The position numbers and the translations under genes are program-made. From Anaerolineae bacterium (GTDB lineage Bacteria > Chloroflexota > Anaerolineae > B4-G1 > SLSP01), in contig JBNGCW010000006.1 of NCBI GenBank assembly GCA_049975525.1, positions 68,702 to 132,701 of the forward strand: a stretch of 64,000 nucleotides of DNA, given 5' to 3'. Positions within the stretch are counted from its first letter, which is position 1. Each line of letters begins with the position of its first letter. The notes under the pieces are model-generated. The model did not search any database. It was given only the letters and a program-made list of their open reading frames with translations, and was not told where the DNA came from. This document shows, piece by piece, positions 12,364-31,535 of this stretch.

Positions 12364-12409
12364 CGCGTGCTCCTTGTTTTCTGCGGGATTTCCGTTGCTG
12401 CCTTTGCCT

Positions 12410-13174
12410 TCACAGGAACAATGCCAGGCTCAAGATCAACAGCTCGCCGACGAGGGTCCAGCCGAAGAGGCGCCACGAACGACGTTCCCCAACGTGTCGA
12501 TAGTGGTGTTCCCCTCCACCGATGACCAGGGTGATCCAGCCCAGGGACAGGAAGAAGACGCCCCAGTTGCCCAGCGCGACGGCCGGCCAGGGATCTTGCC
12601 AGAGGCGCGCGTAGACGCGGAAGAAGAGCTCCCGCAGCAAGTAGATTTCGTAAAGGGCCACCACGGCAGTGCCCAGCCAGAGCGTCACGGCCAACGCCGT
12701 GGTGAGTGTGCGGCGCGGTTGCAGCAGGCGGGGATGTTGCCCCCAGCTCATCACCGGGACGAGGAAGAGGATGCAGGCCAGGGTGGGGAACGCCATCGTC
12801 CGCCCCGGCTTGGCGGCGATGAAAGCGGGCTCGACCTGCTGCACGAGGCCTAACAGCGCCGCCAGCAGCCCGATGAGGGCCGCGCCCACGGGCAGAAAGT
12901 CCACGACACGGCGGCGGTGCAGCTGCCGTTGGGGCGCGCGTCCCATGCGTGTCCGGACCGCGGCGAAGGTCATCTCTGCCGGCGGTTTGACGTCGTCAAG
13001 CGCGGTGCGCAGTTCGCGCCGCAGCCGCCGTTGGGTCTCCTCGTGGACGGTCAGCGCGGTACGGCAGGCGGGACAGGCGACCAGGTGTCGGTCCATGTGC
13101 TCCCGTTCCGCATCGGTCAGCGTCTGATGCACGTATCCGATCAGCTCATCTTGGGTGAGGTGTTGCTTCATCGC
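12410..13174 (-). CDS. Anti-sigma factor (zf-HC2 type) with a C-terminal tri-TM GGGEHHYRHVGE domain
   Basis: The start is at MKQHLTQDELIGYVHQTLTDAEREHMDRHLVACPACRTAL (H-x3-C-x2-C zinc finger), overlapping the sigma factor stop as ATGA. A TM segment and a membrane domain paralogous to 9888..10238 follow. Confidence 0.75.
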   Translation of the reverse strand, partial: AMKQHLTQDELIGYVHQTLTDAEREHMDRHLVACPACRTALTVHEETQRRLRRELRTALDDVKPPAEMTFAAVRTRMGRAPQRQLHRRRVVDFLPVGAALIGLLAALLGLVQQVEPAFIAAKPGRTMAFPTLACILFLVPVMSWGQHPRLLQPRRTLTTALAVTLWLGTAVVALYEIYLLRELFFRVYARLWQDPWPAVALGNWGVFFLSLGWITLVIGGGEHHYRHVGERRSWRLFGWTLVGELLILSLALFL

Positions 13175-17770: not shown

Positions 17771-18523
17771 TCAGTCTTCGTCTTCAGTTGTGTTCTCTGT
17801 GTCCAATCGTTCCCATAGCTCGATGCTTTTCTGCATTACTTCGCGCGTAATCCGCTCCGCGGCGTCGGCGTCCCCCCGCTCGGCCGCTTCCAGCAGCGCC
17901 GCGTAGAACGCCGCCGACGTCGCCCGCGCTTTTTCCGTGGCGAAGTAGCGCCGTGCCATCTTCTCGTAGAAGCCCGCGAACCCGTTGAGGATCAGGGGGT
18001 AGATGGGATTGCCCGACGCCAGAGTCAGTGTATGGTGCAGTGTCCAGTCGAAGGCAGCGTAGGCCGCCGGCGTCGCGGCCAGATCTGGATGTCCGCTCAG
18101 CCGGGAGATGACGGCCTGAGGATCGTGGGCGACCGCCGCGTGGGTGTAGGCCGGCGCCATGGCGAGACGCACCTCCAGCAGATCCCGCACAAAGGTCGCG
18201 GGCAGGCCCAGGTCATAGCGCACCAGCGTATCGAGGACGTTGAGCCCACCTTCGCGCCAGAAGTCATTGACCACGGTGGATTTGCCATGTTGGATGGTGA
18301 GCCAACCGTCGCGCTCCAGGCGCTGCAGCGCCTCGCGCAGGGTGGGGCGGGTGATGCCCAGCTGCTCGGCCAGCCGGCGCTCGCCGGGCAACGTCGAGCC
18401 GGGGGGATAGGTACCGTCGACGAAGGCGATGACCAGCGTTTCTTCCGCGTACTCGGCGGGTCGTTGAGGTGGCATAGGTCTCCTCTCTACTGGTAAGTGG
18501 TCTGACCAGTTGTATTGTACCAT
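17771..18523 (-). CDS. GntR family (FadR-like C-terminal domain) transcriptional regulator
   Basis: The N-terminal wHTH (LPGERRLAEQLGITRPTLREALQRLERDGWLTIQHGKSTVV) is followed by an all-helical FCD-like domain. Confidence 0.8.
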   Translation of the reverse strand: MVQYNWSDHLPVERRPMPPQRPAEYAEETLVIAFVDGTYPPGSTLPGERRLAEQLGITRPTLREALQRLERDGWLTIQHGKSTVVNDFWREGGLNVLDTLVRYDLGLPATFVRDLLEVRLAMAPAYTHAAVAHDPQAVISRLSGHPDLAATPAAYAAFDWTLHHTLTLASGNPIYPLILNGFAGFYEKMARRYFATEKARATSAAFYAALLEAAERGDADAAERITREVMQKSIELWERLDTENTTEDED

Positions 18524-18540: not shown

Positions 18541-18580
18541 AAGGGGGTAAAAAGAGACGAGCACCTGCCGGTGCTCGTCT
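18541..18580 (-). terminator. Rho-independent terminator closing the NTPase/GNAT/radical-SAM transcription unit
   Basis: Perfect 10-bp stem GACGAGCACC/GGTGCTCGTC with loop TGCC (18556-18579). On the minus strand it is followed by TCTTTTTACCCCC. Confidence 0.6.
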
Positions 18581-18606: not shown

Positions 18607-20133
18607 TCAGTGGCACCACCTCAGAAGACGCAGTCCCTCCAGGCGCAGGAGCGCAGGGAAGAGCGCGCGGTAAATGGCACAATAGGGGGAGGGGCCGGGC
18701 CTGGCCTGGACTGAGCGTGCCAGGAGTGGGCAGCCACCGGCACACCAGTAGCGCCAGGGGCACGTGTGGCATTGCAGCTTATCGTCCACGGGGACGTTTT
18801 GGAAGTTGGCATCAGCCGCCCGGATGGCATCGAGGGGGTCGTCGTTCTTGACGGTGCTCACGGTGTCATCCATGCGCATCTGGCAGCGGGACACGTTGCC
18901 CTGGGGGCCAATGACCAGGTAGCTGCGTCCGGCACCGCAGGGGTAGGCGTGGGGGCTGCTGAACAGGCTGCGATCCAGCAACCCATCGATAAAGCGCTCT
19001 CTGGGTAGATTTGCTTCGATGGTAGAGAGGGCGTTTTGCAACCCTGCGATCCAGCGCTGTTGGGCGTGGGGCTCTGCCAGGCGTGATATGCGCTCAGGAT
19101 CGCGCACAAAGTTGAGATTGAAGCGCAGATCGCGTTCCAGCGCAAAGGCGACTACCTCGCCGAGGTGATCGATGTTATGCTCGGTCACGGTGATGGAGAG
19201 ATAGGGAGCGAGGCCACGGTCTAACGCCCGATCGATAGTGCCGGCGACCTGTGCAAAGGAGCCCCGTCCATCGCTGAAAGGGCGTTGGGCATCGTGCGGC
19301 GCACCGACGCCGTCCAGCGAGATCATCAAGCGCACGTTTTGGTCCTGCAGCCAGGCGATCATGGCGTCGGTGAGACGGGTGCCGTTGGAGAGGAGGGTGG
19401 CGTGCAGTCCCAGACCACGGTGGTCCGTCAACGTCCGCGCATAAGCGTGCAGCGTGCTCACCAGGGGCCAGCGCAGTGTCGGCTCCCCGCCGGCGTACTT
19501 GAGTTTGACAGCCCGGAAGCCGTGCGCCTCGGCGGATCGAACGACGGCCTTGATGGCAGCGCGACCGGTGGCGACGTCCATCTCGCGTCCACGCTTGCGG
19601 ACGTAACAGTAGGGACAGCGGAGATTGCAGGCGTCGGTCACGTGCAGCCAGACGGTGAGGAGTTGCGGAGGCGCGTGCAAATGCTCGCCGGGTCCGCAGT
19701 CTGAGCTCAGCAGGCCCAGGGCGGCGAATTGCTCATCGGTTTCCGTCTTCAGGGGTCGGGGCTCCGTAAAGTGCGCGAACCGCTGCTGCGCGGCTGCGTT
19801 GAGCACCGCCACGGTGGCAGCGCCCTGGGTGTTGAAGAGTAGCGTATGGCCCTCCGGGAGCGGCGCTCGGTAGAGTGATGGGGGGATCTGCCAGAGAGCG
19901 TTGGTGCACGAGGGGGGTAGGCCCAGGGCAATCACCTCTGGGGCGCAGGCGCAGTCAGAGGCGGCTGTAGAATCCTTTAGCCAAATTCCACAGAACGATA
20001 GCGTCTCTGGGTACGCGCAGTCAGATTCGTTGTTCTCACCCAGGAGAGACCAAAAGAGCCGGGGGCGTTGCTTATTAAGCAAGGGTTTGTTCCCCCAATC
20101 GTAAACTACAAATCGTGTATCATCACCATCCAC
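18607..20133 (-). CDS. Radical SAM/SPASM-domain enzyme with an N-terminal roughly 150-aa extension containing a PqqD/RRE-like segment; a putative peptide-modifying maturase
   Basis: CNLRCPYCYV (CxxxCxxC), and C-terminal Cys clusters (CQMRM...CHTCPWRYWCAGGCP...YCAIY) typical of SPASM. The N-terminal HTLLFNTQGAATVAVLNAAAQQRF resembles the RRE/PqqD strand-helix. The start codon is uncertain, and the 5' end overlaps the GNAT gene by 28 nt. Confidence 0.75.
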   Translation of the reverse strand: MDGDDTRFVVYDWGNKPLLNKQRPRLFWSLLGENNESDCAYPETLSFCGIWLKDSTAASDCACAPEVIALGLPPSCTNALWQIPPSLYRAPLPEGHTLLFNTQGAATVAVLNAAAQQRFAHFTEPRPLKTETDEQFAALGLLSSDCGPGEHLHAPPQLLTVWLHVTDACNLRCPYCYVRKRGREMDVATGRAAIKAVVRSAEAHGFRAVKLKYAGGEPTLRWPLVSTLHAYARTLTDHRGLGLHATLLSNGTRLTDAMIAWLQDQNVRLMISLDGVGAPHDAQRPFSDGRGSFAQVAGTIDRALDRGLAPYLSITVTEHNIDHLGEVVAFALERDLRFNLNFVRDPERISRLAEPHAQQRWIAGLQNALSTIEANLPRERFIDGLLDRSLFSSPHAYPCGAGRSYLVIGPQGNVSRCQMRMDDTVSTVKNDDPLDAIRAADANFQNVPVDDKLQCHTCPWRYWCAGGCPLLARSVQARPGPSPYCAIYRALFPALLRLEGLRLLRWCH

Positions 20134-20585
20134 ATCGTATCACAAATCTCAAACTTAGTAAAGCTGTACTTCTTGAAGACATGAATGGCGCGCCGGTTGT
20201 CACGACGCGTTGTCAGTTTCAAGCGAGATAAACCACGGTGCTCAGCCCACGTCATGGCGTGTTGGATCAGGCAGGTGCCGAGCCCCTGATTTCGGTATGG
20301 GGGCAGCAACCCAAGCCCCAGTTCCGCTTCCTTTGGGGCATCCGTGGGAAAAACGCGGCACCAACCGATGGGACGTCCCTCTACCCTGGGCACCATCAAC
20401 AGATGGTCAGGACACTCCGGGTGGGAGAGCGCATGCGCCCACCTGGGGGTTGCTTTGAAACGAGCGGTGTGCATCCACTTACGCTCTCCGCAGACTGTAT
20501 CAATCACGGTGATAAGAAGATCTTGATCCTCAAGTCGATATCGAGAAACGATGAAGGTGTTGTAGCGCTCGAAGATGATATTCAC
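20106..20585 (-). CDS. GNAT family N-acetyltransferase
   Basis: The acetyl-CoA binding motif region is present (RNQGLGTCLIQHAMTWAEHRGLSRLKL...NRRAIHVFKKYSF). The start is apparently GTG. Confidence 0.8.
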   Translation of the reverse strand: MNIIFERYNTFIVSRYRLEDQDLLITVIDTVCGERKWMHTARFKATPRWAHALSHPECPDHLLMVPRVEGRPIGWCRVFPTDAPKEAELGLGLLPPYRNQGLGTCLIQHAMTWAEHRGLSRLKLTTRRDNRRAIHVFKKYSFTKFEICDTMWMVMIHDL

Positions 20586-20603
20586 GCCGAATAACTTCTT
20601 ATT

Positions 20604-23600
20604 TTATGTCAAAGAAACGTTACCCAGTTGCCTGGAGGCGAGCATCGTGTAGTGTTCATAAGACCCGAAAGTGTTTTCGAGCTCACGCCACAAGCGATTC
20701 TCCTCGGCTATAGTTGCCCATTCCCGGGCCATGTCACGGATAGTATTAAAGGCGGCAACCATCTCCTGCACATTCAACCCTTTCAGGCGTCTATGAATAG
20801 TGTTGAGCGCTCTGCGAATGCCCTGATATTCCTTACCCACCAATTCATTATATTCCATCGCCAGTACAAACTCTCGAATAGCTGTACAAAGGTTGGGATA
20901 GGGGGCTTCTTTTGTTCCTGCATCGAAGCTATCCATGGCCATCACGCCCCGCAAGACGTGTAATCGCCCCAATTGACTGAAGATGTCGATGAGAGTATCA
21001 TCGTTGATCTCCGGCTTCCGCTCTTTAGTGAGGAAATAGTCTCCAAAATTTCGCCTGGTTTCTTCCCCAAGTATTTCAAGGAAAGTCTCCGTATCCTCCC
21101 ACTCTTGTTCCGCGGCTCTCTCCGGTTGCTCTCTTTGCAGATAGTAGTACGTCCAGGCCAGACCCAGTGAAGCATCTAGATATTTCTGCCAGAGGTTTTC
21201 CTCTATAGCGATCTTCCTTGAGGCTTCCAGATTTTGAATCGCTGCTTTGGCGTGTTCTAAAGCGTGATCCTCTTCAGACAGAATAAGTTGCCGGTGGGTC
21301 AAGCCCTGTTCGTAAAGGGCAACCATGCGCCGCTCCGGTTCTCCATCTTTGAAGTGCTTCAATGCTTCTTTGGCTTCTTCTAAGGATTGCTGTAAAAGCC
21401 TAGGTCTCTCTCGCGCCGGTGTCTCTGGATCCTCACTCAAGAAGCGATGTAATCGACTTAGCGTCAGAAGAGATAGCCCTATGCCTCGCTTGAAATTCAG
21501 CGTTTGGGAAATCTCCAGAGATCTGGCTGCGTAGGGCTCTGCTTCACGGTAACGTCCTGCCTGGACTTCGACAGCAGCCCGCGTATTGTAGGTCAACGCT
21601 AATGGCAGGCGCGTGCCCAGCTTCTTACGCAGATTTAACGCATCTTTTACTTGATGACGGGCTACCTCGAATTCCCCGCTTAGCGCCAATGCGTATGCCA
21701 GATTTGTCAGCGTGTTCGCCTGCTCCGCTTCCAGTTTGGTAAGTCGCCAGTGCGGTAAGGCGTCTTGATAGGCTTCTGAGGCTGCGATAAATTGTCCCTG
21801 CACCCGGCGTAAATAGCCCAGATTGTTGTAGTTCCGTGCCAAAAGGGCGCTCCAGCGGATGAATTGGGAAGCGGGAACATCATATTCTTTTAGCTGCTTA
21901 TTGGCTGTGAGTAGAATATCTCCTGCCCGTTCGAGATCGTTTTGTTCGCTGTCTCCGCGGTAAATGCGAACCAATGCCTCCCATGTATTCAGTTCTGCTT
22001 CCGCCAGAACGCCACCATCAGCGACTAAGTCGCGTCCTCCATCGCGTAGCATCTGTACAATGCGCCAGGCTTCATCGAGGTTTTGTCGCTCGACGTACCG
22101 TTTTACCCACCGGATGGCCGCATCAGCCTCAAGATCGGCGCGTCTCAAGCCGTCGGCGATGATCTCCTGCTTGCCAGATGGATCCTGTTCGGCTACAAAA
22201 GTCAGGAGCTCGGCCCGCAATTGCATATCCAGATTCTCGTCGTGGGTGGCAATGGCCTCTTCTGCATAAAGGAAGTATGTCTGAAAACCCGCAGAGGGAT
22301 TCCAGCGCAGGCGATAATGCAGGTCTTCCACCAAAGCGTCTTCGAGGTACGCGCGAGCCTCCGCAACCTTTAAGGTATCAGGCAGTTCTTTTTCCAGGGC
22401 AGGATAGAGACCCGCGATGGCCTCCCGCGCCTCTTGGATGCGTTGCTTATAATAAGCCCGGATCTCCCGATAAACGCGCTCCCGCTCTTTATCTGCAATA
22501 TCTTTCAAGGCATGTTGGAACAACAAGTCGTACATCTCATCGTGCAGAAAGAGCCAGTCATCCTCAGGGCGGCGCTTGACGAAGGAGAGATCGCGGATCT
22601 GCTCCAGAGCATCTTCGACTTCTTCGAGCGTCAGGTCGGCAACGCGAGCCAGCAAAGCCGGTGGGCCACCTTTACGTAACCAGCCCAGTGCGATGATCAC
22701 CTCGTCGCCCGGACGGCGGTTCTCGCGCAGGGCCTGCACGAGACGCCTCCCTAGCTCGTCCCGTATCTCTTCTCGTCGATGGGTGGAGTATTGACGGGCT
22801 TCGTCCAGGGTGCTGCCAAAGGCTTCCAGCGGCCTGCCATCGATCACCAGGTGATCGATGGCGAGGGCCAACCAGATGGGCGGAATGGTCGGTGGATCTC
22901 CTCCATCGTGCAGACAATGAAAAATAGCGCGCCGTCTCTCTTGACCGAGGTGTTGAATGGCTTCTGCTGTCCTACGATCATGGGGGTTGTCGCTGTCCTG
23001 TGCAGCGGCAATAACGGCATCGAAATACGCTCGCGCTGCTTTTTCCTTCAAGCCTGATAGCTTCAAGGGTAGTATCTCCTGCCGTTCACTCAGACGGGCT
23101 TTCAATGTGGTGGCTAGATCCGGTTGATAAGGGCGTCCCGATAAGATCAGCACGACGTTTTGCACCTGTGGTAGGAACGTATTCAGCAACCACTTCAGTA
23201 CGTCGGGTTGCTCTTCCGTGATATGCAGATCGGCGGCGGCCAAATCCTCTTGTTGAAAAAGCTTCTCCACGGTGTCCAGCACCAACACCACACGCTGTTG
23301 ATCGGTAAGATTCTTTAGATCAGCGAAGAAAGCTTTTTGCAAGGCTTGGCGTTCGGCGGAAGGTATGGGTTCACCACGAGTGTAACGCTCACGAAGCTCT
23401 CGCCGCTTTTCTTGATAGCGCTCAAACTCAGTCGGTAAGACCGCCTGAATGCGTTCCATCAGCCCTGCAGCAGTACGCGCCGAGGTATGGTAAAGATCAA
23501 TGATGTCTGAGGCGACCAGCGGCTTGATCTCGAGTTGAGGGACATGTTCCAACACGTGTTGGACCAGGCGCGTTTTGCCGATACCTCCGGGGCCGGTGAT

Positions 23601-23720
23601 ATAGATGACGTAAGCGTTTGCGGTGTCAAGAATTGCTTGGTTGATCTGCAATACTTCTTTCTCACGTCCTACCAACTCAGGCGTGGCACGAACGCTCTCA
23701 TAGGTCTCGCGGTATGTCAT
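20604..23720 (-). CDS. STAND-type (AAA_16-like) P-loop NTPase with long C-terminal TPR repeat region (1038 aa)
   Basis: ELVGREKEVLQINQAILD...YVIYITGPGGIGKTRL (Walker A) and VVLVLDTVEKL (Walker B). The C-terminal half has multiple TPR-like repeats (LGYLRRVQGQFIAASEAYQDAL..., LTNLAYALALSGEFEVARHQ...). The region is about 50% GC versus about 67% in the flanks. RBS GGAGGG is upstream. Confidence 0.8.
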   Translation of the reverse strand: MTYRETYESVRATPELVGREKEVLQINQAILDTANAYVIYITGPGGIGKTRLVQHVLEHVPQLEIKPLVASDIIDLYHTSARTAAGLMERIQAVLPTEFERYQEKRRELRERYTRGEPIPSAERQALQKAFFADLKNLTDQQRVVLVLDTVEKLFQQEDLAAADLHITEEQPDVLKWLLNTFLPQVQNVVLILSGRPYQPDLATTLKARLSERQEILPLKLSGLKEKAARAYFDAVIAAAQDSDNPHDRRTAEAIQHLGQERRRAIFHCLHDGGDPPTIPPIWLALAIDHLVIDGRPLEAFGSTLDEARQYSTHRREEIRDELGRRLVQALRENRRPGDEVIIALGWLRKGGPPALLARVADLTLEEVEDALEQIRDLSFVKRRPEDDWLFLHDEMYDLLFQHALKDIADKERERVYREIRAYYKQRIQEAREAIAGLYPALEKELPDTLKVAEARAYLEDALVEDLHYRLRWNPSAGFQTYFLYAEEAIATHDENLDMQLRAELLTFVAEQDPSGKQEIIADGLRRADLEADAAIRWVKRYVERQNLDEAWRIVQMLRDGGRDLVADGGVLAEAELNTWEALVRIYRGDSEQNDLERAGDILLTANKQLKEYDVPASQFIRWSALLARNYNNLGYLRRVQGQFIAASEAYQDALPHWRLTKLEAEQANTLTNLAYALALSGEFEVARHQVKDALNLRKKLGTRLPLALTYNTRAAVEVQAGRYREAEPYAARSLEISQTLNFKRGIGLSLLTLSRLHRFLSEDPETPARERPRLLQQSLEEAKEALKHFKDGEPERRMVALYEQGLTHRQLILSEEDHALEHAKAAIQNLEASRKIAIEENLWQKYLDASLGLAWTYYYLQREQPERAAEQEWEDTETFLEILGEETRRNFGDYFLTKERKPEINDDTLIDIFSQLGRLHVLRGVMAMDSFDAGTKEAPYPNLCTAIREFVLAMEYNELVGKEYQGIRRALNTIHRRLKGLNVQEMVAAFNTIRDMAREWATIAEENRLWRELENTFGSYEHYTMLASRQLGNVSLT

Positions 23721-23735
23721 GATTTCCCTCCACTC

Positions 23736-24914
23736 TCAAGACAGTGCCATCACAGATGTGCAATCTGCTTCACGGTGTTGCAGCTGCTGCTGGTGATATT
23801 GATACGCTTTCTGCCAGTGTTCTTGGGTGCGCTTATATTTTTGGGCCCATCCCTGGTATAGATTGGCTGCCGCACATTGCAGGCGTTCCCAGGTGGCTGG
23901 TCTGTTGTTTCTCATGTACTGCTCAACCAGCTGGCGGACAGGTTCGTCCAGCGCGTATGCGCTTTCTTCGGAGTCCCAGCGTGCGAAACCTGTCTCGACC
24001 AACGCTTCGCGGACCTGACGCGCTTGTGCGTGGGACCAGTGATGATATTGGGAATTGTTGTGGTAGGCGGCTAACATGACCGGGATCCGCGCCTCATCGA
24101 AGACCTGCAGGACGCACAGAGCCTCAAGGTACTCGCGTACGCTCTGCCGTCGGCCTGGATCCTTGATGCTCTTCAACATCTCGTGGATGACTTGGCCGAG
24201 GGCTTCTCCTGGATCCTCGTGTTCGGCTAAGAGGTAAGTTGCCAGGGGATTCCCTTTGCTGATCTTATAGATCTCCTGTGCGCGTGAGACGGCTCGTTTG
24301 CGTTGTCGCTTCAATTGTTCGTGCGTCGCGGACTTGGAGAACGGCTCTAAATCGACAAATTCTGCATCAAACCTCAGTTCCGGCGTGGTAAAGGGATATG
24401 GACGTCCACGTCCTGCCAGGACAATCAGCGTTTGCGGTTCAACGGCCAGGGGGCCCAAGACGTACTCTTCCAGTGCGTCCAGCAGATCCCAACCGGCTTC
24501 GTAGACGTGATCAACCAGCAATACCAATACCCGGGCATTCAGTTGCTTGGTCACCTGTGCCAAAAAGCGCCGGCTCATCTCGGAAGGTTCATCGGTCTGC
24601 AGTTTGAGATTCAAGGTTTTTGCCAGGTGCTGCAGAATGTCGGTGACGGCGATCAAGGGATTCCAGTCCTCGTATGCCGTGAGATCCAGCCCACAAGGGA
24701 TGACCCCCCGCATACTGTCGAGTACCGTCTGCAGGTGTTTGAGCAGCCACGTTTTGCCGGTCCCTCGTTCTCCCAGGAAGATCACCGTCCGCTTAGGGAC
24801 CGATTTACCCTCAGCCAGACGGTGGGCTCTATCGATAACCTCCTCGATTTTATCTTCTCGGTCCACGAAGAGTTCCTTTTTGTATTCAAGTAGGGTAATT
24901 TCTTTGTTATTCAT
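23736..24914 (-). CDS. AAA_16/STAND-like P-loop NTPase (about 390 aa)
   Basis: FVDREDKIEEVIDRAHRL...VIFLGERGTGKTWLLKHL (Walker A) and VLVLLVDHV (Walker B). The start is chosen at the second ATG (MNNKEI) preceded by a purine-rich RBS. A 15-nt gap separates it from the downstream gene. Confidence 0.7.
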   Translation of the reverse strand: MNNKEITLLEYKKELFVDREDKIEEVIDRAHRLAEGKSVPKRTVIFLGERGTGKTWLLKHLQTVLDSMRGVIPCGLDLTAYEDWNPLIAVTDILQHLAKTLNLKLQTDEPSEMSRRFLAQVTKQLNARVLVLLVDHVYEAGWDLLDALEEYVLGPLAVEPQTLIVLAGRGRPYPFTTPELRFDAEFVDLEPFSKSATHEQLKRQRKRAVSRAQEIYKISKGNPLATYLLAEHEDPGEALGQVIHEMLKSIKDPGRRQSVREYLEALCVLQVFDEARIPVMLAAYHNNSQYHHWSHAQARQVREALVETGFARWDSEESAYALDEPVRQLVEQYMRNNRPATWERLQCAAANLYQGWAQKYKRTQEHWQKAYQYHQQQLQHREADCTSVMALS

Positions 24915-24965
24915 CTCGATTCTCCCTTCCATACAAAGCGGCGAGCGAACGCGGTTGGCGGCGTC

Positions 24966-26189
24966 TCACTCGCCTTGGTATGCGGGTGTTCCCCCTCGGT
25001 TGTGTTGATAGCGTTCTATAGCTTGCTCGATGTCCTTTTCTTCCAAATAGCCCTCACGGCCCGCGCGTCGCAAGTGAAACTGCAACATATCGCGGGTCAG
25101 CACAAGCATCTCGCGCGGCAGGGGCTCAACAGCTTCGGCTAACAGCGTCTCCACGTCGCGCAGTCCCGGGGACGCGATGGCATCCAGACTGCCAAAGGCT
25201 CCCTCACTGGCTACGTAGACGCGACGGCGAACGACCTCGCTCAACAGCGCCGGTGACCACGTCAGAAAAGCACAGCGCTGCGCAGCAAAGGCTTCGGGAC
25301 ATCGCTGCTGTAAGGTTCGATGCGTCGCCAGCGGGAGAAAGCCCTTGACGTAGATGCCTTGCTCCGCCCACGTGAAGAGGTGAGGTATCCAGGGGTCCAG
25401 AACGGCGACGACGTTATCGGCGTCCAGATACGTCTCCGGGACAGCGTCCAGACCATCCAGCAGGATGTACAAAGAGCGCACGTGTAGGGTGTCCAACAGC
25501 GCTGCAAGCAAAGCCTCCCAGCGGGTCGCTGCACTCTCAGGCCTGTCCTCCGCAGAGGGCGTCGCTTCTATTGCCCGGCACCACTCACGCAACGTATCGG
25601 GTTTTGGCGGGTCGGGCAAGGCGAAGGCCGGCCCCAGGTTCAACGCTCTCCGCACCTGCGTTAAACTGCCCGTTTCCCGGCAGAGCTCAACATATGTGGA
25701 CAGCGGTCCCGGCAGATTCCACGCCAACGCTCTGCGGAGTACACGCCGGTCTTCACCTTGCAGGTTCATGAACCAGTGAGGGCGATAGGCCAGCGTCATG
25801 AGTAGGGCGCGAGCGCCAGCACGTCCCAATGCCAGGAGATGGTCGTCCCACGAAGGCGGCAGCCGCTCCCAGCGTAAATAAGGAGGATTATACGGGATGG
25901 GAAAGGGGCGGTTGGGTGCCTGTCCAACCCAACAGGCGCGTGTGGTACGGACGCGCATAGCCGTCTTACCTCCGCCGGCCGGTGCGAAAAGCCAGGCAAT
26001 CCAGTCGCCCCAGACGTGCGCAAACTGCTCGTGCCCGACGAGGTATTGACTCAAATGGGGATCTTCAGCCGCATTGAGGACGGCAAACGGATCAAAACGC
26101 AGTCCCCGATCGCGCAGCCAGTGCCACAGGGATGCCTCGTCTGCTCGCAATGTAGCCTGGGTAGTGCTTGATAAAGATGACATCTTCAT
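24966..26189 (-). CDS. P-loop NTPase (407 aa), family unresolved
   Basis: WLFAPAGGGKTA (Walker A) and LYILLDGLDAVPE (Walker B-like). There are no other recognisable domains. Confidence 0.6.
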   Translation of the reverse strand: MKMSSLSSTTQATLRADEASLWHWLRDRGLRFDPFAVLNAAEDPHLSQYLVGHEQFAHVWGDWIAWLFAPAGGGKTAMRVRTTRACWVGQAPNRPFPIPYNPPYLRWERLPPSWDDHLLALGRAGARALLMTLAYRPHWFMNLQGEDRRVLRRALAWNLPGPLSTYVELCRETGSLTQVRRALNLGPAFALPDPPKPDTLREWCRAIEATPSAEDRPESAATRWEALLAALLDTLHVRSLYILLDGLDAVPETYLDADNVVAVLDPWIPHLFTWAEQGIYVKGFLPLATHRTLQQRCPEAFAAQRCAFLTWSPALLSEVVRRRVYVASEGAFGSLDAIASPGLRDVETLLAEAVEPLPREMLVLTRDMLQFHLRRAGREGYLEEKDIEQAIERYQHNRGGTPAYQGE

Positions 26190-26413
26190 CTAAGCGGTTT
26201 GATCATACGTTCACTAGGCCATCTGACTATATCAAAACTCGCTTCTAAGGTGTGCAAATGCAACGGGCAAACCCCACAGCTTGAGGACTACCTCAATCAG
26301 GTTAACAAACATTATATGTCAAACACAAGAAGATACTTTTATCATAACGGGTATTTGCTCACTGCTATGCCACAATTCTCTAACTTAGATGTCACGTATA
26401 TCTCACGACAATC

Positions 26414-27796
26414 TCACCAGCGCACATGGAGCCTGATGCCGTATCCGCGAACTGTCTCCAGCAGCACGGGATGGGAGGGGTCCGGTTCAATCGCCTTCCG
26501 CAGCCGCCACAAGTTGGTGTCGATAACACCCTCGTAATTGTGTGTATCTTCGTACTTCTCCTCATGCTGAGCTGGAATCCGCTTCAGTTCGCGATATCCA
26601 AGGTAGTAGAGTTCCTTCTTTGGAATGACCTCGTCCGCTCGTTGGTAAAGATACCGCAGCATCGCATACGCCTTAGCCGGAACCTTGGAGAGGTCGATGT
26701 CCCGTCCACCCACCAGGATGCGACGGGCCTGCTCGTCCAGATAGAGCCGAGGCGGGTGTTCTTCTCGCAACGTCAACCAGGTGGTTTCGTCAATGGGTAG
26801 ACGGTTTTGCCGGACGGCATGGCGCGCCAGCGGCGCGACCTGATCCAACCAGTGCCGGGGGGAGTGACCCCCTGCTTTCTTCAGCCAGGGGAGGAACTCG
26901 GGGGAGGCACACAGTGCTTCCAGCGAGACCTTTTCTTTATCAAGCACCAGAGCCAGACGGCGCTCAACAACGCGCCGGAGCGAGCCCGTGTCCCAGCGGA
27001 GATGCATGCTATCCAACCGTCGGCGGGCTATGCCCCCGGCGTGACTCAATATCGGCGCCAGATGGGTGGGAGCCCAGAGTTTGTAGATCAAGCCGGCTTG
27101 TTCAAAGAGGGCCAGGGTTGAAAGAAAAGCGCCTAAACCACGAACGACGTGTTCAGTATCTACCGGAGCCCAGCCCGCCAAGCCGTCGCTCATAATCCAA
27201 ATTCCATCCAGCTCTATGCCATGTAAGGTGGTGACCAACTCTGCAAGGATCTGATCAGGGTCTGCGTCGTCATGGAGGACATCTTTCACCGGTGCTTCTA
27301 GAAGATCATTGATAACCTCCGCGCCCTGAGGGTACTGTTGTGTCAGCGGCTCAAGCCGCAGACGAGCATCTCCGTGTAGAAACCGACAAATGAACCAGCG
27401 CAGGCGTGTTTTCACCCAATCGGGGGCTTCTCGGTAGTCCGTCGGATGAGCGGCGAGATGGCCCACCAGTGCCTTCGCGCATTTGTCGAAAATCTCGAAG
27501 ACTTGTCGCCGGACCCAGCCGAGATTGGCTTCAACGCCGGGGGGGAGCGGTGCAGGGCGCCAGTCCACCAGGAGGCGCAACGGGTGCCCCTCGGTGGTGT
27601 GACTGCGGCGGCGGAGCTCGCGATAGAGCGCCGTCTTGCCGGAGCCGGGACCGCCGAAGACGATGATAGAGCGGGGAGCGAGTATCCGCTCAAAGCCCGG
27701 CGGCGGCACGAAGCAGGCAGACAGCCAGGGCTCGGCCTCGGCCCGCAGGTCGTTAAAGGCCGCCTCGTAGGTCACGGGTGGAGTCTCGGTTTTCAT
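26414..27796 (-). CDS. P-loop NTPase fused to a C-terminal OmpR/PhoB-type winged-helix DNA-binding domain
   Basis: IIVFGGPGSGKTALYREL (Walker A) and IWIMSDGLAGW (Walker B-like). The C-terminus NLWRLRKAIEPDPSHPVLLETVRGYGIRL matches the trans_reg_C consensus (hIsrLRkKl.dp...I.TVRGvGYrl). Confidence 0.75.
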   Translation of the reverse strand: MKTETPPVTYEAAFNDLRAEAEPWLSACFVPPPGFERILAPRSIIVFGGPGSGKTALYRELRRRSHTTEGHPLRLLVDWRPAPLPPGVEANLGWVRRQVFEIFDKCAKALVGHLAAHPTDYREAPDWVKTRLRWFICRFLHGDARLRLEPLTQQYPQGAEVINDLLEAPVKDVLHDDADPDQILAELVTTLHGIELDGIWIMSDGLAGWAPVDTEHVVRGLGAFLSTLALFEQAGLIYKLWAPTHLAPILSHAGGIARRRLDSMHLRWDTGSLRRVVERRLALVLDKEKVSLEALCASPEFLPWLKKAGGHSPRHWLDQVAPLARHAVRQNRLPIDETTWLTLREEHPPRLYLDEQARRILVGGRDIDLSKVPAKAYAMLRYLYQRADEVIPKKELYYLGYRELKRIPAQHEEKYEDTHNYEGVIDTNLWRLRKAIEPDPSHPVLLETVRGYGIRLHVRW

Positions 27797-29793
27797 GCTG
27801 CGGTCTCTTCCGGAGGATCTCCCAGGATGTCGATAAGATCATCCATATTTAGCAGTGCCTGCTTTTGACCGATCCGTCGGATAAGATCATTCCCCAATTG
27901 GAACATCCGGCCCAGTTTTCCCTCGGCGGCGTGAACGATCCACGCCTCGAGATCAGGAAGCGAGGGTCTTATCACCGGATCACACCACTCCCGGAGGGCG
28001 CTTTCACCGCTGTGTTTTAATCTTTGCTCTAGAATCGCCTTCAGTTTGGCTGGCGAGAGGGTTAAATCATAATGGGGAATGTCGAGGCTTTCGGTTAACA
28101 TCGTCATCGCCGAAGCCTGCACAGGCGGCATAAACACCTTGATAAACACACCGGCATGGCCTAACTTTTCACACCAGATCGATAGTCTCCTACCCCATAG
28201 ACGGGGATCCTGGGGTGTACTCTGTACATCTAATAACATCAAAGTGGCCTCAAAGGGTCGGGGGCGCGCTTGACGCAGTAGGATCAGCAGCTCGTTTTCT
28301 GATAGCGGCGCATCGGTGGGTGCAGATTGCGCCAGAGTCTCGATTTCCTGCACCATCTGAGCACCCTCTCCGACTTCCGGCACGCCGGCTCTCCGGAAAT
28401 GATAGGTCAGCCGGGGCGTGAAGTATCTGCCCAGCAAATGGGCCATGGATGCTTTTTTGTCAATTGATGACTTGAGAAAATCCTCCGGGGTTACCGCGAG
28501 GTAATGTAACAACGTGTAGGCCAGGGAACGGCTCAGGGTTTCAAATTGCAGTTGAACCGGTGTTCCGCGCCAGTAGACCGGGAAGACCGATCGGTCAGCC
28601 GTAAGTGCGTCGCGGGCTATCCACAGCGCTGTGGCCGTCTTGCCCGCGCCTTTGTCACCGGTGTACAAAGCGGTTTCAAACAAACGGATGTCTTTCCACC
28701 AGTTTGGCGAAATGCGCGTTTTGAGCAGAGCAGAGTCGGTTTCTGCGACCGCATTCCCAAAAGGCGGAACGTGGAGGCCTACGTAACGCAGGCCGGAGGC
28801 CAGGGCCGTATCAGGTGTTGGAGGGAGCCTGTGCCAGAGTGAAATCTGTGGAGAACATCGTAAAATCTGCACCCACTGTCGCTGCTGTGCTTGCTGTAAT
28901 CGGCGGCCGTCAATATGTATCGCATAGGCCGGAAGATCGCTTAAGGATAAGAACCCCGGCCATGCCTTTTGACGCCAGTCGTCGTCCAGATTCTCCAGTG
29001 TCCATTCCAAGACGTGAGCCGGACGGGATTCCTCCATCTCCCCCGCGATTTTCTTGAAGCGCTCCGCTTCGTCGACACAGGCTAACAGTCTCACGGCATC
29101 GCGAAGGTCAGCCGGCGCAGTGGTTTGCCAGGCTTCCTTCAACCCGCTCTGGATCCGCTCTTTTTTCCATACCCCATCATTTCTTCTCAACAAACTCAAG
29201 TAGCGGCGTGCGCCTTTCGAATAATCGTCCTGCAATAACCGCCGCCATTCTTCGATCTCGTTCCTGGCATCACGAAGATGCTTTTTGCGTTCCTCTTCAC
29301 CCGACGAGATTATTTTCCACTGTTGAATGCCAAATCCTGCCAGGGTCGTGATCAGGGTGCCAATGAGAGCAGTCGATGACTGACCTGTGGCTTTTTCGAG
29401 TAAAGTGTAGACAACATAAGCAATAAGTAGCCATAATCCTAACAACGGCAGCGCCTTGACAAAGACCAGCACGGAGGTCAACGGCCAGTCTTCAGACCAA
29501 CGCCACCAATGATGTGCTACCCTCTTCCAGAGACGGAAACGTTCTCTGAAGTTAACGAAATCGATGGATAGGAGACTTAAAGTGATGATCAGTGCTATCT
29601 GCAGTGCTAGCGACCGCTCAACTTGGAGAACGGCTAATAGAATCAGACATGACAAGTAGAATAATACGGCTCTAGCGAACCACGTTGTTACATGGGGTAA
29701 ATCCCAGAGTAGTGCATAGAGTGAGTGTAAGAACGAGACGGCCTCTTCCCACACTGGTTGTAGCCACTCCCGCACATCAAAGCGCTTTCGCAT
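27793..29793 (-). CDS. Membrane-anchored P-loop NTPase (about 4 N-terminal TM helices)
   Basis: TM helices (VLFYLSCLILLAVLQV, LALQIALIITLSLLSI, VLVFVKALPLLGLWLLIAYVVY, LIGTLITTLAGFGI), then TALYTGDKGAGKTATALWIARDA (Walker A) and TLMLLDVQ (Walker B-like). The start is chosen at MRKRF (ATG 29793) with a GGAGGAG RBS; the ORF could extend to 29910. Its stop overlaps the downstream gene's start (27793/27796). Confidence 0.65.
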   Translation of the reverse strand: MRKRFDVREWLQPVWEEAVSFLHSLYALLWDLPHVTTWFARAVLFYLSCLILLAVLQVERSLALQIALIITLSLLSIDFVNFRERFRLWKRVAHHWWRWSEDWPLTSVLVFVKALPLLGLWLLIAYVVYTLLEKATGQSSTALIGTLITTLAGFGIQQWKIISSGEEERKKHLRDARNEIEEWRRLLQDDYSKGARRYLSLLRRNDGVWKKERIQSGLKEAWQTTAPADLRDAVRLLACVDEAERFKKIAGEMEESRPAHVLEWTLENLDDDWRQKAWPGFLSLSDLPAYAIHIDGRRLQQAQQRQWVQILRCSPQISLWHRLPPTPDTALASGLRYVGLHVPPFGNAVAETDSALLKTRISPNWWKDIRLFETALYTGDKGAGKTATALWIARDALTADRSVFPVYWRGTPVQLQFETLSRSLAYTLLHYLAVTPEDFLKSSIDKKASMAHLLGRYFTPRLTYHFRRAGVPEVGEGAQMVQEIETLAQSAPTDAPLSENELLILLRQARPRPFEATLMLLDVQSTPQDPRLWGRRLSIWCEKLGHAGVFIKVFMPPVQASAMTMLTESLDIPHYDLTLSPAKLKAILEQRLKHSGESALREWCDPVIRPSLPDLEAWIVHAAEGKLGRMFQLGNDLIRRIGQKQALLNMDDLIDILGDPPEETAA

Positions 29794-30005
29794 CGTCTCC
29801 TCCGCAAGGGGTAATGGGGACATCTTTATCTTACTACAACTCCACGCAAAGCACAACTTTCCCCGTGAGATTGCTGTGAGATTCGGGTGGGAGAAGAGTA
29901 TGCCCACCAACAGGAAGCGGTTGGGTAGCTGTATGCGGGTCGCGGCCTAAAGATGCTTTAATAAGATCAGATTACTTCTCAGACCCACCAATGAAGGAGG
30001 CAGCC

Positions 30006-31535
30006 ATGCACACAGAATCCCCCCAAGGGGCTGGGCGCCGGGATGAAGTCGTCGCCATCGTCGACCGCTATCAGCTCCAAGAGCGCAGCAAACGCCGCAA
30101 TGTCAAGGTCGATCCCGCACGCGAGGCCGAGATGTTACGGCTGCTGTTGGGCGTCTACGGGCGGAACAAGCGTCTAATCGCCGTCCTCAACGAGGACGAC
30201 CGCGACGCCATCAGCGCTTACAAGAAGCACGCCTATGAGGTCAAGCCGATGAACGGAGATCGTCCCAATGCGCTCCGGCGCCTGATCAAGGAGGAGTTCG
30301 ATCGCCCCTCGCCTAAGCACCTCGTCGTCATCAGCGACGACCCCGCGTTCTCCACGCTCTGCACCTTCGCCGCCCGCAACAACACCCAGGTCTCCGTCTG
30401 GTCCCCTACCAGCCGCATCCCCGAGGACCTGCGCGACGCCCGCTTCGACGTCCGCTATCTCAACGAGCTCCTCCCCGATACCTACATCCAGCTGGGCGTG
30501 GCCGTCGTCTGGCTGGATATCGAGAACTTGCTCATCGGCCTGAAGGAAAAGGGCGTCATCCCGGACATCAAAACCTTCGTCGATGCCATTCGCCAGGAGG
30601 TCAGCGACCTGGGCGACGTGACCAGCATCATCGCCTACGGCGACTTCGGGCTCCTGCGCAAGATCTTCGGCACCGACGTGCAGCGCAAGTTGGAGCAGCT
30701 CGGCGTCCGCACCCGCTACCAGGTCAACGTGCACGGCAAGAACAGCGCCGACATGGAGATCGCCGGCGACATCCACACGTATCTGGAGCGTGACCCCAAC
30801 GTCGAGACGGTCATCATCGGCACCGGCGACCGCGACTTCCGTCCCTCCGTGGACGCTGCCCACGGCAAGGGCAAGAAGGTCATCATCCTGGCCCTCAAGG
30901 AGAGCCTCAGCCGCGACCTCCGCCAGGCCGCCGACGACGTGCGCTTTCTCGACAAGTACTTCACCGCCGACACCCCTTCGCCGACGCCGGTGACCGCCGA
31001 GCTGCGCAACCGCTGGGTCCCCATCCTCCTGCGTTTCGCCGACCGGCTCCACAGCCGCCGCTGGCGCTGGGCTTACCGTGACAAGGTAAGTGACCTGTTC
31101 TCCAGCGACGAGATCCGCGAGGCCCTGGAGGCCGGACTGCTCAAGCACGGACGCGACGGCGATCCCCGCACCCTCACCTTCGACTTCAACCATCCGCTGG
31201 CCTGTCAGGTTTATCACATGGCCTGGTGGATCGTTGAGCGCGTGGAGTACCTCGTCAACGAGAAAGGCATGCCCTACGTCGATACCCACTACCTCGCCCG
31301 AGGCATGCGCCGGGATGCAAAGTGCCGGGATCTGGACATCGGTCAGGATCGTGCCGACGCCGAAGCGTGGCTCCACGCCGCGGCGGCCGCCGACCTCATC
31401 GTCAAGCGCACTCAACCGCATCCCAAGGCGCCGCACAAACAGATCGACACTTGGTGGCCGCAGGCGCCCCTCCTCCCGACCCCGGCGATCTTCCGTCAGC
31501 GCGAGGAACGCCCCCCCGCCCCCACCGAGGTCTGA
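30006..31535 (+). CDS. NYN (LabA-like, PIN-related) domain nuclease with possible additional N-terminal degenerate NYN and C-terminal OST-HTH/LOTUS-like region
   Basis: VAVVWLDIENL...GKNSADMEIAGDIHTYL...VIIGTGDRDFRP match NYN catalytic motifs. The start is chosen at ATG 30006, 6 nt after GGAGG. It is divergent from the NTPase array. Confidence 0.7.
   Translation: MHTESPQGAGRRDEVVAIVDRYQLQERSKRRNVKVDPAREAEMLRLLLGVYGRNKRLIAVLNEDDRDAISAYKKHAYEVKPMNGDRPNALRRLIKEEFDRPSPKHLVVISDDPAFSTLCTFAARNNTQVSVWSPTSRIPEDLRDARFDVRYLNELLPDTYIQLGVAVVWLDIENLLIGLKEKGVIPDIKTFVDAIRQEVSDLGDVTSIIAYGDFGLLRKIFGTDVQRKLEQLGVRTRYQVNVHGKNSADMEIAGDIHTYLERDPNVETVIIGTGDRDFRPSVDAAHGKGKKVIILALKESLSRDLRQAADDVRFLDKYFTADTPSPTPVTAELRNRWVPILLRFADRLHSRRWRWAYRDKVSDLFSSDEIREALEAGLLKHGRDGDPRTLTFDFNHPLACQVYHMAWWIVERVEYLVNEKGMPYVDTHYLARGMRRDAKCRDLDIGQDRADAEAWLHAAAAADLIVKRTQPHPKAPHKQIDTWWPQAPLLPTPAIFRQREERPPAPTEV

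Follow-up and report, generated by a model that had tools for sequence, protein, structure and literature searches.

What is a peptide-modifying radical S-adenosylmethionine (SAM) enzyme doing at the end of an operon of nucleoside triphosphatase (NTPase) genes? The question is raised by gene G, encoded on the minus strand of a 64,000-nucleotide stretch of an Anaerolineae genome (hereafter the window). The original prediction took G to be a maturase for peptides that are made by the ribosome and modified after translation (RiPPs), with a segment like a RiPP recognition element (RRE) at its N-terminus and a SPASM cysteine cluster at its C-terminus. We find that G is closest to the thioether-forming peptide maturases (CteB, PapB, nif11-type and QhpD), not to the anaerobic sulfatase-maturating enzymes (anSME), and that it is part of a conserved Chloroflexota cassette, not of a free-standing RiPP cluster. 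The core of this cassette is gene E, a STAND NTPase with tetratricopeptide repeats (TPRs) directly upstream of G; the full version adds genes A, B, C and D, an optional gene F and a linked NYN nuclease. The most likely substrate of G is its own cysteine-bearing tail. From domain architecture, fold predictions, motif conservation, synteny and the co-occurrence of DNA boxes with gene B, we infer this substrate in cis, the chemistry performed on it, the reading of the tail by TPRs and an immune role.

Enzyme class of G

The class assignment draws on the following features.

18607..20082, minus strand: gene G, RRE, radical SAM and SPASM enzyme of 491 amino acids, from a probable TTG start (the longest reading frame extends to GTG 20133)
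19708..19899, minus strand: RRE-like domain, residues 62-125, three strands plus helices in the predicted structure
19606..19629, minus strand: CxxxCxxC radical SAM cluster motif (C152, C156, C159; sequence CNLRCPYC), invariant in homologues
18679..18939, minus strand: SPASM region with seven invariant cysteines (C382, C400, C438, C441, C447, C451, C468), from alignments, spaced as in CteB

G belongs to the radical SAM superfamily (PF04055, Radical_SAM, 62.3 bits against a cut-off of 29.5). Each of its radical SAM and SPASM cysteines is invariant in 90 homologues, and the C-terminal cysteine cluster noticed earlier is a complete SPASM pattern (C382-x17-C400 ... C438-x2-C441-x5-C447-x3-C451-x16-C468 in the 491-residue numbering). 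Assignment to the SPASM subfamily rests on this motif and on whole-chain predicted-fold matches to CteB and anSME, because the Pfam SPASM model falls below its cut-off (18.8 vs 21.5 bits). The best NCBIfam matches are all peptide maturases (nif11-type, PapB, QhpD, SCIFF and DynA), and no equivalog cut-off is reached: the nif11 radical SAM model TIGR04064 gives 126.5 vs 518.7 bits, PapB (NF047865) 122 vs 340, QhpD (TIGR03906) 117.8 vs 453 and SCIFF (TIGR03974) 101.7 vs 425, with the anSME model TIGR03942 at 75.2 vs 349. Since G scores far under all of these cut-offs, its family has no curated NCBIfam model.

Comparison with known structures points the same way. The best PDB relative by sequence is CteB, a thioether-forming SCIFF maturase (5wgg, E 7e-37), followed by anSME, SkfB, TigE, ChlB and PqqE. 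An AlphaFold2 model of G built with 90 homologues has a mean predicted local distance difference test (pLDDT) score of 86.6 and a predicted template modelling (pTM) score of 0.87. Foldseek with this model again ranks CteB first (E 4e-19), with 452-466 aligned columns that take in the entire CteB chain, including its N-terminal domain. In CteB, PapB and Tte1186, auxiliary cluster 1 (AC1) has three protein cysteine ligands and auxiliary cluster 2 (AC2) has four, and the open fourth iron site of AC1 binds a cysteine or selenocysteine of the substrate (PMC10177961). The seven SPASM cysteines of G are spaced as in these three enzymes, which by analogy supports cysteine-directed crosslinking chemistry for G.

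A viperin-like enzyme was considered on account of a PADLOC pVip match (E 8e-17), which is limited to the generic radical SAM core. We rejected it because the RRE, the SPASM region and the nearest relatives all indicate peptide substrates.

The N-terminal RRE

Counted from TTG 20082, 151 residues precede the first cluster cysteine, in line with the extension of about 150 residues described earlier, and this extension is both conserved in the family and translated. In the full-length protein as well as in an isolated model of residues 1-138, residues 62-125 form three strands and then helices, all at pLDDT above 90. The top six Foldseek matches of this domain are all RRE-bearing RiPP enzymes, with E-values that are not significant for so small a domain. 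The RRE call rests on predicted structure because sequence methods fail: Pfam is silent, and a profile of the N-terminal region of G compared with PDB sequences gave chance matches only. Going by the confidently predicted fold, we assign G a putative PqqD-like RRE, a winged-helix domain whose three-stranded sheet binds leader peptides. The RiPP-maturase architecture of the original prediction is thereby upheld, with a conserved and translated extension, a predicted RRE fold and peptide maturases as nearest relatives. We checked three things that would speak against it, namely an extension dissimilar to RREs, classification with anSME, and an extension that is not translated, and found none of them. 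We consider the enzyme class of G and its RRE highly probable.

Conserved STAND-TPR cassette

The genes that accompany G in the window are as follows.

20106..20585, minus strand: gene F, accessory GNAT acetyltransferase (Acetyltransf_1, PF00583, 65.2 vs 20.7 bits)
20604..23720, minus strand: gene E, AAA_16 STAND NTPase with C-terminal TPRs, upstream partner of G in 55 of 58 loci
23736..24932, minus strand: gene D, AAA_16 ATPase (Pfam and synteny)
24966..26189, minus strand: gene C, P-loop ATPase, distant relative of the DS-41 anti-phage ATPase (NCBIfam and synteny)
26414..27796, minus strand: gene B, Sll1717-like P-loop ATPase bearing an OmpR-type winged helix-turn-helix (wHTH) domain, Trans_reg_C, at its C-terminus (Pfam and NCBIfam)
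27793..29793, minus strand: gene A, four predicted transmembrane (TM) helices and a P-loop ATPase (annotated ATG 29793; longest reading frame to 29910)
29991..31535, plus strand: NYN-domain gene, predicted RNase (Pfam NYN, 86.6 bits)

Among 185,579 species-representative genomes we found 540 relatives of G. Homologues at 40-55% identity in other Chloroflexota share the gene order of the window: A, B, C, D (AAA_16), E (AAA_16 and TPR), sometimes F, then G. The hosts of these syntenic homologues include Anaerolineae, Thermoflexales, Caldilineales, Ardenticatenales, Roseiflexus and Chloroflexus, plus one Asanoa. Most loci have the full array (A-B-C-D-E, with or without F), and in distant loci the cassette is reduced to a D-position gene, E and G. 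An E-like STAND-TPR gene lies on the same strand and ends within 1.1 kb upstream of G in 55 of the 58 non-redundant loci that have enough upstream sequence. The STAND-TPR pairing is the defining, conserved context of the G family, and that the cassette is conserved is close to certain. The original prediction had called a RiPP module beside an NTPase array unusual; the module has its RiPP-maturase architecture, and the pairing is no accident.

Gene E is a STAND-TPR protein by its AAA_16 (46.6 vs 32.6 bits) and TPR_12 (47.4 vs 30.1 bits) domains and its Walker A motif GPGGIGKT, and Walker A is kept in all five NTPases. Genes A and B overlap by 4 nt (27793-29793 and 26414-27796). The four predicted TM helices ahead of the P-loop of A suggest that the array is probably membrane-anchored. 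In distant loci the protein in the D position has an N-terminal EAD7 domain (L064, and likewise L006) or a TIR domain (L074), and in L051 only a Peptidase_C25-like match, with no ATPase domain detected.

GC content and GC at third codon positions (GC3) are markedly lower in the NTPase genes, most of all in A, D and E, than in the radical SAM gene (0.53/0.56-0.62 vs 0.64/0.76) and in the flanking housekeeping genes. This contrast, which spans 20100-29900 in the window, is repeated in many genomes (e.g., L007, L010, L012, L028, L031, L084) and suggests that the NTPase part turns over or is exchanged faster than the enzyme.

The acetyltransferase assignment of F is solid. In the PDB it matches 2ge3 best (E 1e-14), and RimI and Naa50-type N-terminal acetyltransferases come next; the gene is confined to the subclade nearest the G protein of the window. 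Membership of the HaaN and HaaT families (the GNAT and TPR proteins of cyclophane RiPPs) was considered and rejected, the matches being weak and far under the cut-offs (15.8 vs 250 bits for F with HaaN).

One genome has a second G paralogue behind a different array (L004:735-9748; GCA_964575455, contig CAZNRX010000001), composed of a NACHT-HEAT protein (1530 aa), an AAA_35-wHTH protein, a 74-aa open reading frame (ORF), an AAA_35 protein and a CHAP/Ricin-B lectin protein. Judging by this example, other terminal genes may likewise be paired with related ATPase-wHTH arrays.

Search for a precursor peptide

A RiPP maturase would ordinarily be expected beside a precursor gene, and the original prediction had seen none of at least 60 aa. 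We compared 3,210 ORFs of 15-130 aa located outside the cassette genes of about 80 loci by all-against-all clustering, and the absence extends to this size range: no family occurs in more than 5 of the 80 loci, and none has the cysteine motif of the G tail, the fragments in three loci described below excepted. With no separate precursor gene beside the maturase, the locus does not qualify as a classical RiPP gene cluster. For genome mining, this is a caution that an RRE-bearing radical SAM/SPASM enzyme without a precursor gene may not mark a natural-product cluster.

The largest small-ORF clusters (5 loci) come from one clade, in which both strands are conserved downstream of G (L018:4484-4708, L019:5834-5965, L032:3062-3199, L035:2164-2316 and L039:2504-2728), and they resemble non-coding or unrelated DNA. 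ORF artefacts such as LAPCTEPAIIYIAGGPNERR arise from this stretch, for which a non-coding RNA is one possibility and the beginning of the leader of a neighbouring S1-domain gene another. In the window, ORFs of 25 and 26 aa in the 26190-26413 gap were rejected as precursors, as they have no cysteine and are not conserved.

Free-standing ORFs with the Asp-Cys-Ala-Cys (DCAC) motif typical of the G tail were found only at L063:6614-6880, L080:6608-6946 and L068:6581-6793. They are conserved, about 70 aa long, lie between two E paralogues and combine the DCAC motif with the beginning of the RRE (consensus MDxMVLL..E[ED]DDCAC..LRLHAGG..LKTVPVN). They look like truncated copies of the N-terminus of G, the alternative being a free-standing substrate peptide.

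N-terminal tail of G

About 60 residues ahead of the RRE are predicted to be disordered. Three features stand out in this tail.

20044..20058, minus strand: leader-like hydrophobic strand, residues 9-13 (LFWSL; family consensus P-x-I-L-W-S; alignments A1/A2)
20011..20022, minus strand: degenerate first copy of the cysteine motif (DCAY; DCAC in homologues), from the alignment
19945..19956, minus strand: intact DCAC motif (D43-C46), second copy, in the disordered tail; invariant in 90 of 90 homologues

Residues 9-13 form a beta strand in both AlphaFold2 models (pLDDT 57-69). Past this strand the family has one to four copies of a unit of about 22 residues with an invariant DCAC (consensus E-x-D-C-A-C) in hypervariable surroundings. 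Copy number varies even among close relatives; two loci (L051 and L060) have four QCDCNCDCAC units each, and in some homologues further DCAC copies stand after the RRE and ahead of the catalytic core. When the window and 88 loci (about 1.3 Mb) were translated in six frames, DCAC turned up almost nowhere but at the N-terminus of G. The most economical reading would place a leader-like strand, a core motif, the RRE and the catalytic domains on one polypeptide.

GTGAGAT boxes and gene B

Three sites bear on the control of the cassette.

26356..26417, minus strand: six GTGAGAT-like heptamers in 11-bp phase, the first overlapping the B stop codon; putative site of the B wHTH domain
26341..26346, minus strand: conserved -10-like hexamer TATGAT of the putative internal promoter for C-D-E-F-G (alignment A5 and flanks of 30 loci)
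29865..29893, plus strand: further set of GTGAGAT boxes, between the divergent A and NYN genes and oriented to the latter

A pattern of three box units with up to 3 mismatches has three matches in the 64-kb window against 0 expected from 100 shuffles; two lie after B and the third is the set ahead of the NYN gene. The TATGAT hexamer lies about 10 nt past the last heptamer and is conserved across loci. Across loci, phased boxes follow B, stand upstream of A, or lie 60-100 nt downstream of G. Of the 36 loci that encode B, 24 have boxes, against 1 of the 17 that lack it, and shuffled loci give 3 matches per 1.2 Mb against 51 in the real sequence.

Gene B has a Trans_reg_C domain (32.2 bits vs a cut-off of 26.2), with which the 11-bp-phased repeats co-occur. 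The classic site of OmpR/PhoB-type winged-helix activators consists of direct repeats one helical turn apart, in place of a -35 element. Because the boxes co-occur with B and are laid out like such sites, we take B to be the driver of both the C-to-G operon and the NYN gene, and we think regulation through the boxes is reasonably probable. The boxes give ready access to the question of how such a system is switched on by an ATPase-wHTH protein.

In four loci (L021, L028, L036, L073) the boxes downstream of G precede homologues of the NYN gene of the window (E 1e-37 to 1e-66). Elsewhere, they precede a TM/coiled-coil protein of about 200 aa (8 loci) or small SWIM-like proteins. The former, absent from the window, has about 180-290 aa with two TM segments around a charged coiled coil (L005:11609-12256, L006:12545-13165, L018:3887-4417, L030:11987-12688, plus four more loci), and may serve the system as a membrane effector or anchor. 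The SWIM-zinc-finger-like proteins (W-x-CDC ... C-x-H), which stand after G behind GTGAG boxes (L006:11698-12006 and 12238-12528; L065:11750-12097; L071:2551-2838), have a CxC signature that loosely resembles the DCAC motif of the tail.

Start codon, gene spacing and terminator

Both minus-strand ORFs described in the original prediction are present: 18607-20133 (508 aa from GTG) and 20106-20585 (159 aa). Upstream of them are the 1038-aa AAA_16 and TPR gene E and then four more P-loop NTPase genes, to about 29.8 kb. The likely start of G is TTG 20082, which has a GGGGGA Shine-Dalgarno sequence 8 nt upstream and agrees with the public annotation of an identical protein (P0001, 491 aa, from an Anaerolineae metagenome-assembled genome) and with all homologue N-termini. 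GTG 20133 was rejected as the start; it lacks a Shine-Dalgarno sequence, and its 17 additional residues are unmatched in every homologue. The 28-nt overlap of F and G noted earlier exists only for the longest ORF and is probably an ORF-calling artefact, since with TTG 20082 the two genes are separated by a 23-nt spacer. F and G overlap by ATGA in several other genomes (L006, L013, L023, L034), so that their close coupling is real. F begins 18 nt past the stop codon of E, as had been described.

A strong terminator, previously placed at 18541-18580, is real and closes the unit.

18555..18580, minus strand: intrinsic terminator ending the C-D-E-F-G transcription unit (11-bp stem with 7 G-C pairs, 4-nt loop, T-run)

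An Rfam search of the whole window gave no matches. Past the terminator, the gene at 17771-18523 (minus strand) matches the NCBIfam equivalog for FadR, the gammaproteobacterial-type fatty-acid regulator (229.5 bits vs a cut-off of 189), and has a FadR_C domain and its own extended -10 promoter-like site (18542-18514). FadR is an unexpected family in an Anaerolineae genome.

Proposed mechanism and alternatives

Our best explanation as a whole, put forward tentatively, is that G is a CteB/PapB-type cysteine-directed maturase and a fixed part of the STAND-TPR cassette, with the following mechanism. B would bind the 11-bp-phased GTGAGAT boxes and control both the C-D-E-F-G promoter and that of the NYN gene. 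G would work on its own disordered N-terminal tail, with the P-x-ILW-S strand docking like a leader on the RRE and a DCAC cysteine taking the open iron site of AC1, to yield a thioether-type crosslink. The GNAT protein may acetylate the tail. The TPR domain of E could then read the modification state of the tail, attached or released, and so couple G to NTPase oligomerisation and effector output (NYN, or TIR in other loci), a logic that by analogy would be typical of STAND conflict or immune systems. As TIR, EAD7 and NYN domains are hallmarks of STAND-based conflict systems, we lean somewhat towards a conflict or immune role for the cassette. The substrate in cis and its read-out by TPRs are possible and held with less confidence than that role. 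The further reaching proposal, in which G carries its own leader and core, crosslinks itself in cis and so makes the tail a signal or licensing ligand for the STAND-TPR protein in a widespread Chloroflexota immune-like system, is doubtful as it stands. If true, G would be the first radical SAM enzyme of the RiPP type to modify itself, and the cassette a new coupling of peptide chemistry to STAND immunity.

Several observations weigh against this account. A Pfam scan of residues 1-140 that admitted E-values up to 10 gave no PqqD/RRE match, and SPASM stays under its Pfam cut-off. The tail is modelled with low confidence, and in the short model strand 9-13 could pair with residues 31-32, not with the RRE sheet. 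The first motif copy of the window protein is degenerate (DCAY), CxC runs such as QCDCNCDCAC also resemble metal-binding sequence, and no conserved protease that could release the tail was found in the cassette. The boxes are tied to B by co-occurrence and domain type only, and PADLOC 2.0, run on eight proteins, recognized no known defence system.

It is also possible that G modifies its substrate in trans (a fast-evolving small peptide, a cysteine motif of a cassette protein or a protein of an invader), the tail being a docking or regulatory element such as a short linear motif for the TPRs of E or an autoinhibitory pseudo-substrate. Precursors can be too short or divergent for blastp clustering, which limits the small-ORF comparison; TPR domains bind short peptides, and E adjoins G almost throughout; and a free DCAC ORF does lie between two E paralogues in three loci. 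These ORFs, however, resemble truncated duplicates of the N-terminus of G that include the start of the RRE, DCAC is otherwise practically confined to G, no conserved small ORF emerged from 80 loci, and the only two intergenic gaps of the window with room for a peptide gene contain promoter boxes and non-conserved, cysteine-free ORFs. If the tail is not consumed at all, its DCAC/CxC repeats may be a metal-, iron-sulfur- or redox-sensing appendage and the true substrate unrelated. CxC runs do resemble metallothionein-like ligands (QCDCNCDCAC appears four times in L051 and in L060), radical SAM/SPASM enzymes require three Fe-S clusters, and in some homologues the motif also lies between the RRE and the catalytic core. 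We think such an appendage unlikely: one to four copies at variable spacing in disordered, low-complexity linkers would be unusual for a structural metal site, the conserved acidic context (E-x-D-C-A-C) and the upstream hydrophobic strand resemble a leader-core layout, and, going by the 3+4 cysteine pattern, AC1 should have an open site for a substrate thiolate.

Two further explanations concern the class of the system. The cassette could be a secondary-metabolite (RiPP) cluster whose NTPases regulate the pathway in the manner of AfsR/SARP or MalT/LAL proteins and have no immune or conflict function. B (ATPase and OmpR-type wHTH) and E (STAND ATPase and TPRs) together make up the domain set of AfsR-like regulators, phased boxes stand ahead of the radical SAM operon, and GNAT proteins are common RiPP tailoring enzymes, with weak matches here to HaaN and HaaT. 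Those scores are far under the cut-offs, however, and five NTPases per enzyme are far beyond any known pathway regulator. D counterparts with TIR or EAD7 domains, a co-regulated NYN nuclease, the lack of a transporter, protease or immunity gene, and the fact that in many genomes the GC/GC3 of the NTPase genes is below that of G and the flanks (often so in conflict genes with fast turnover) also make a biosynthetic cluster quite unlikely. Least of all do we expect G to be of the anaerobic sulfatase-maturase type, converting Cys or Ser to formylglycine in a full-length protein. Although anSME is the second-best PDB relative by sequence and fold, its model falls far short of the cut-off on G, and its alignments span only the radical SAM/SPASM core (query 152-476; about 380 Foldseek columns), not the RRE region that CteB aligns. 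G has an RRE and seven SPASM cysteines, not eight, and no locus has a sulfatase gene or a partner with C-x-[PA]-x-R, so that this very improbable reading was already disfavoured.

Comparison with known systems

The Chloroflexota cassette is apparently undescribed so far: full-text searches on SPASM with STAND NTPases, and on radical SAM or RiPP systems in Chloroflexi/Anaerolineae, gave no description of it. PADLOC matches are generic only, to pVip (radical SAM core), PtuA (P-loop), mad8 and RtcR_PspF1, all except pVip with E > 1e-3. C and B are distantly related to the NCBIfam DS-41 model (DS41_1, 67 and 43 bits, with the cut-off of 370 not reached); DS-41 itself consists of one ATPase gene and has been validated as a defence system in E. 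coli (PMC13092281). Like the STAND antiviral and conflict systems (Avs, bNACHT, EAD/TIR-coupled), the cassette has multiple STAND or P-loop NTPases, TPR sensors, family members with TIR, EAD7 and NYN modules, and NTPase genes of lower GC than their flanks. Unlike those systems, the NTPases of the window have no fused effector domains, one has a transcription-factor domain, and a radical SAM/SPASM enzyme is the constant partner.

As an enzyme, G shares with CteB, PapB and Tte1186 (SCIFF-type and ranthipeptide maturases, with cysteine-containing peptides as substrates) the N-terminal RRE, the radical SAM core and a seven-cysteine SPASM region of equal spacing (3 AC1 + 4 AC2). It differs in its low identity (about 18%), its scores far under the NCBIfam cut-offs, the lack of a SCIFF- or PapA-like precursor gene, the additional DCAC-repeat tail of about 60 residues, and a context of NTPases in place of a small RiPP cluster.

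Among the systems described so far, the one nearest to the cassette is the FxSxx/FxsB peptide system of Actinobacteria, which is coupled to TIR-AP-ATPase-TPR proteins. For the FxSxx-COOH/FxsB systems of Actinobacteria, Haft and Basu 2011 is reportedly a source alongside Kaur et al. In their survey of NTP-dependent conflict systems of multicellular bacteria, Kaur et al. 2020 describe a module of FxSxx-COOH peptide, zincin peptidase and radical SAM-SPASM enzyme that is always coupled to AP-ATPase/TPR proteins and sometimes to TIR (PMC7159879, section 24), and the processed peptide was proposed to be a toxin or amplifying signal (PMC7159879). Here, too, a radical SAM-SPASM peptide enzyme is genomically coupled to STAND/AP-ATPase-TPR proteins in multicellular bacteria. 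Our cassette differs in its host phylum (Chloroflexota, not Actinobacteria), in lacking a separate FxSxx precursor, the zincin peptidase and the vWA-MoxR core, in the fusion of the candidate substrate motif to the enzyme, and in its partners A, B, C, the NYN gene and the GTGAGAT boxes. G also falls outside the FxsB family (TIGR04269, 55.2 vs 370 bits).

If the tail is the substrate, G would resemble the borosins (OphMA) and the plant BURP-domain cyclases, in which, as far as these accounts go, enzyme and core lie on one polypeptide and act autocatalytically (PMC7878506, PMC10107690). Their chemistry is N-methylation or copper-dependent BURP cyclization, not radical SAM, and the borosin core is described as C-terminal (PMC7878506). 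Our literature search found no radical SAM enzyme with a core peptide fused in cis. New in the cassette is the coupling of an RRE-bearing radical SAM/SPASM maturase to a STAND-TPR protein, for which no NCBIfam or PADLOC model exists. STAND NTPases are central to the innate immunity of bacteria, plants and animals, and their licensing by small ligands is largely open. Were G to modify its own DCAC tail, the fused-precursor principle of borosins and BURP cyclases would extend to radical SAM chemistry, and a bacterial STAND sensor would gain a concrete ligand.

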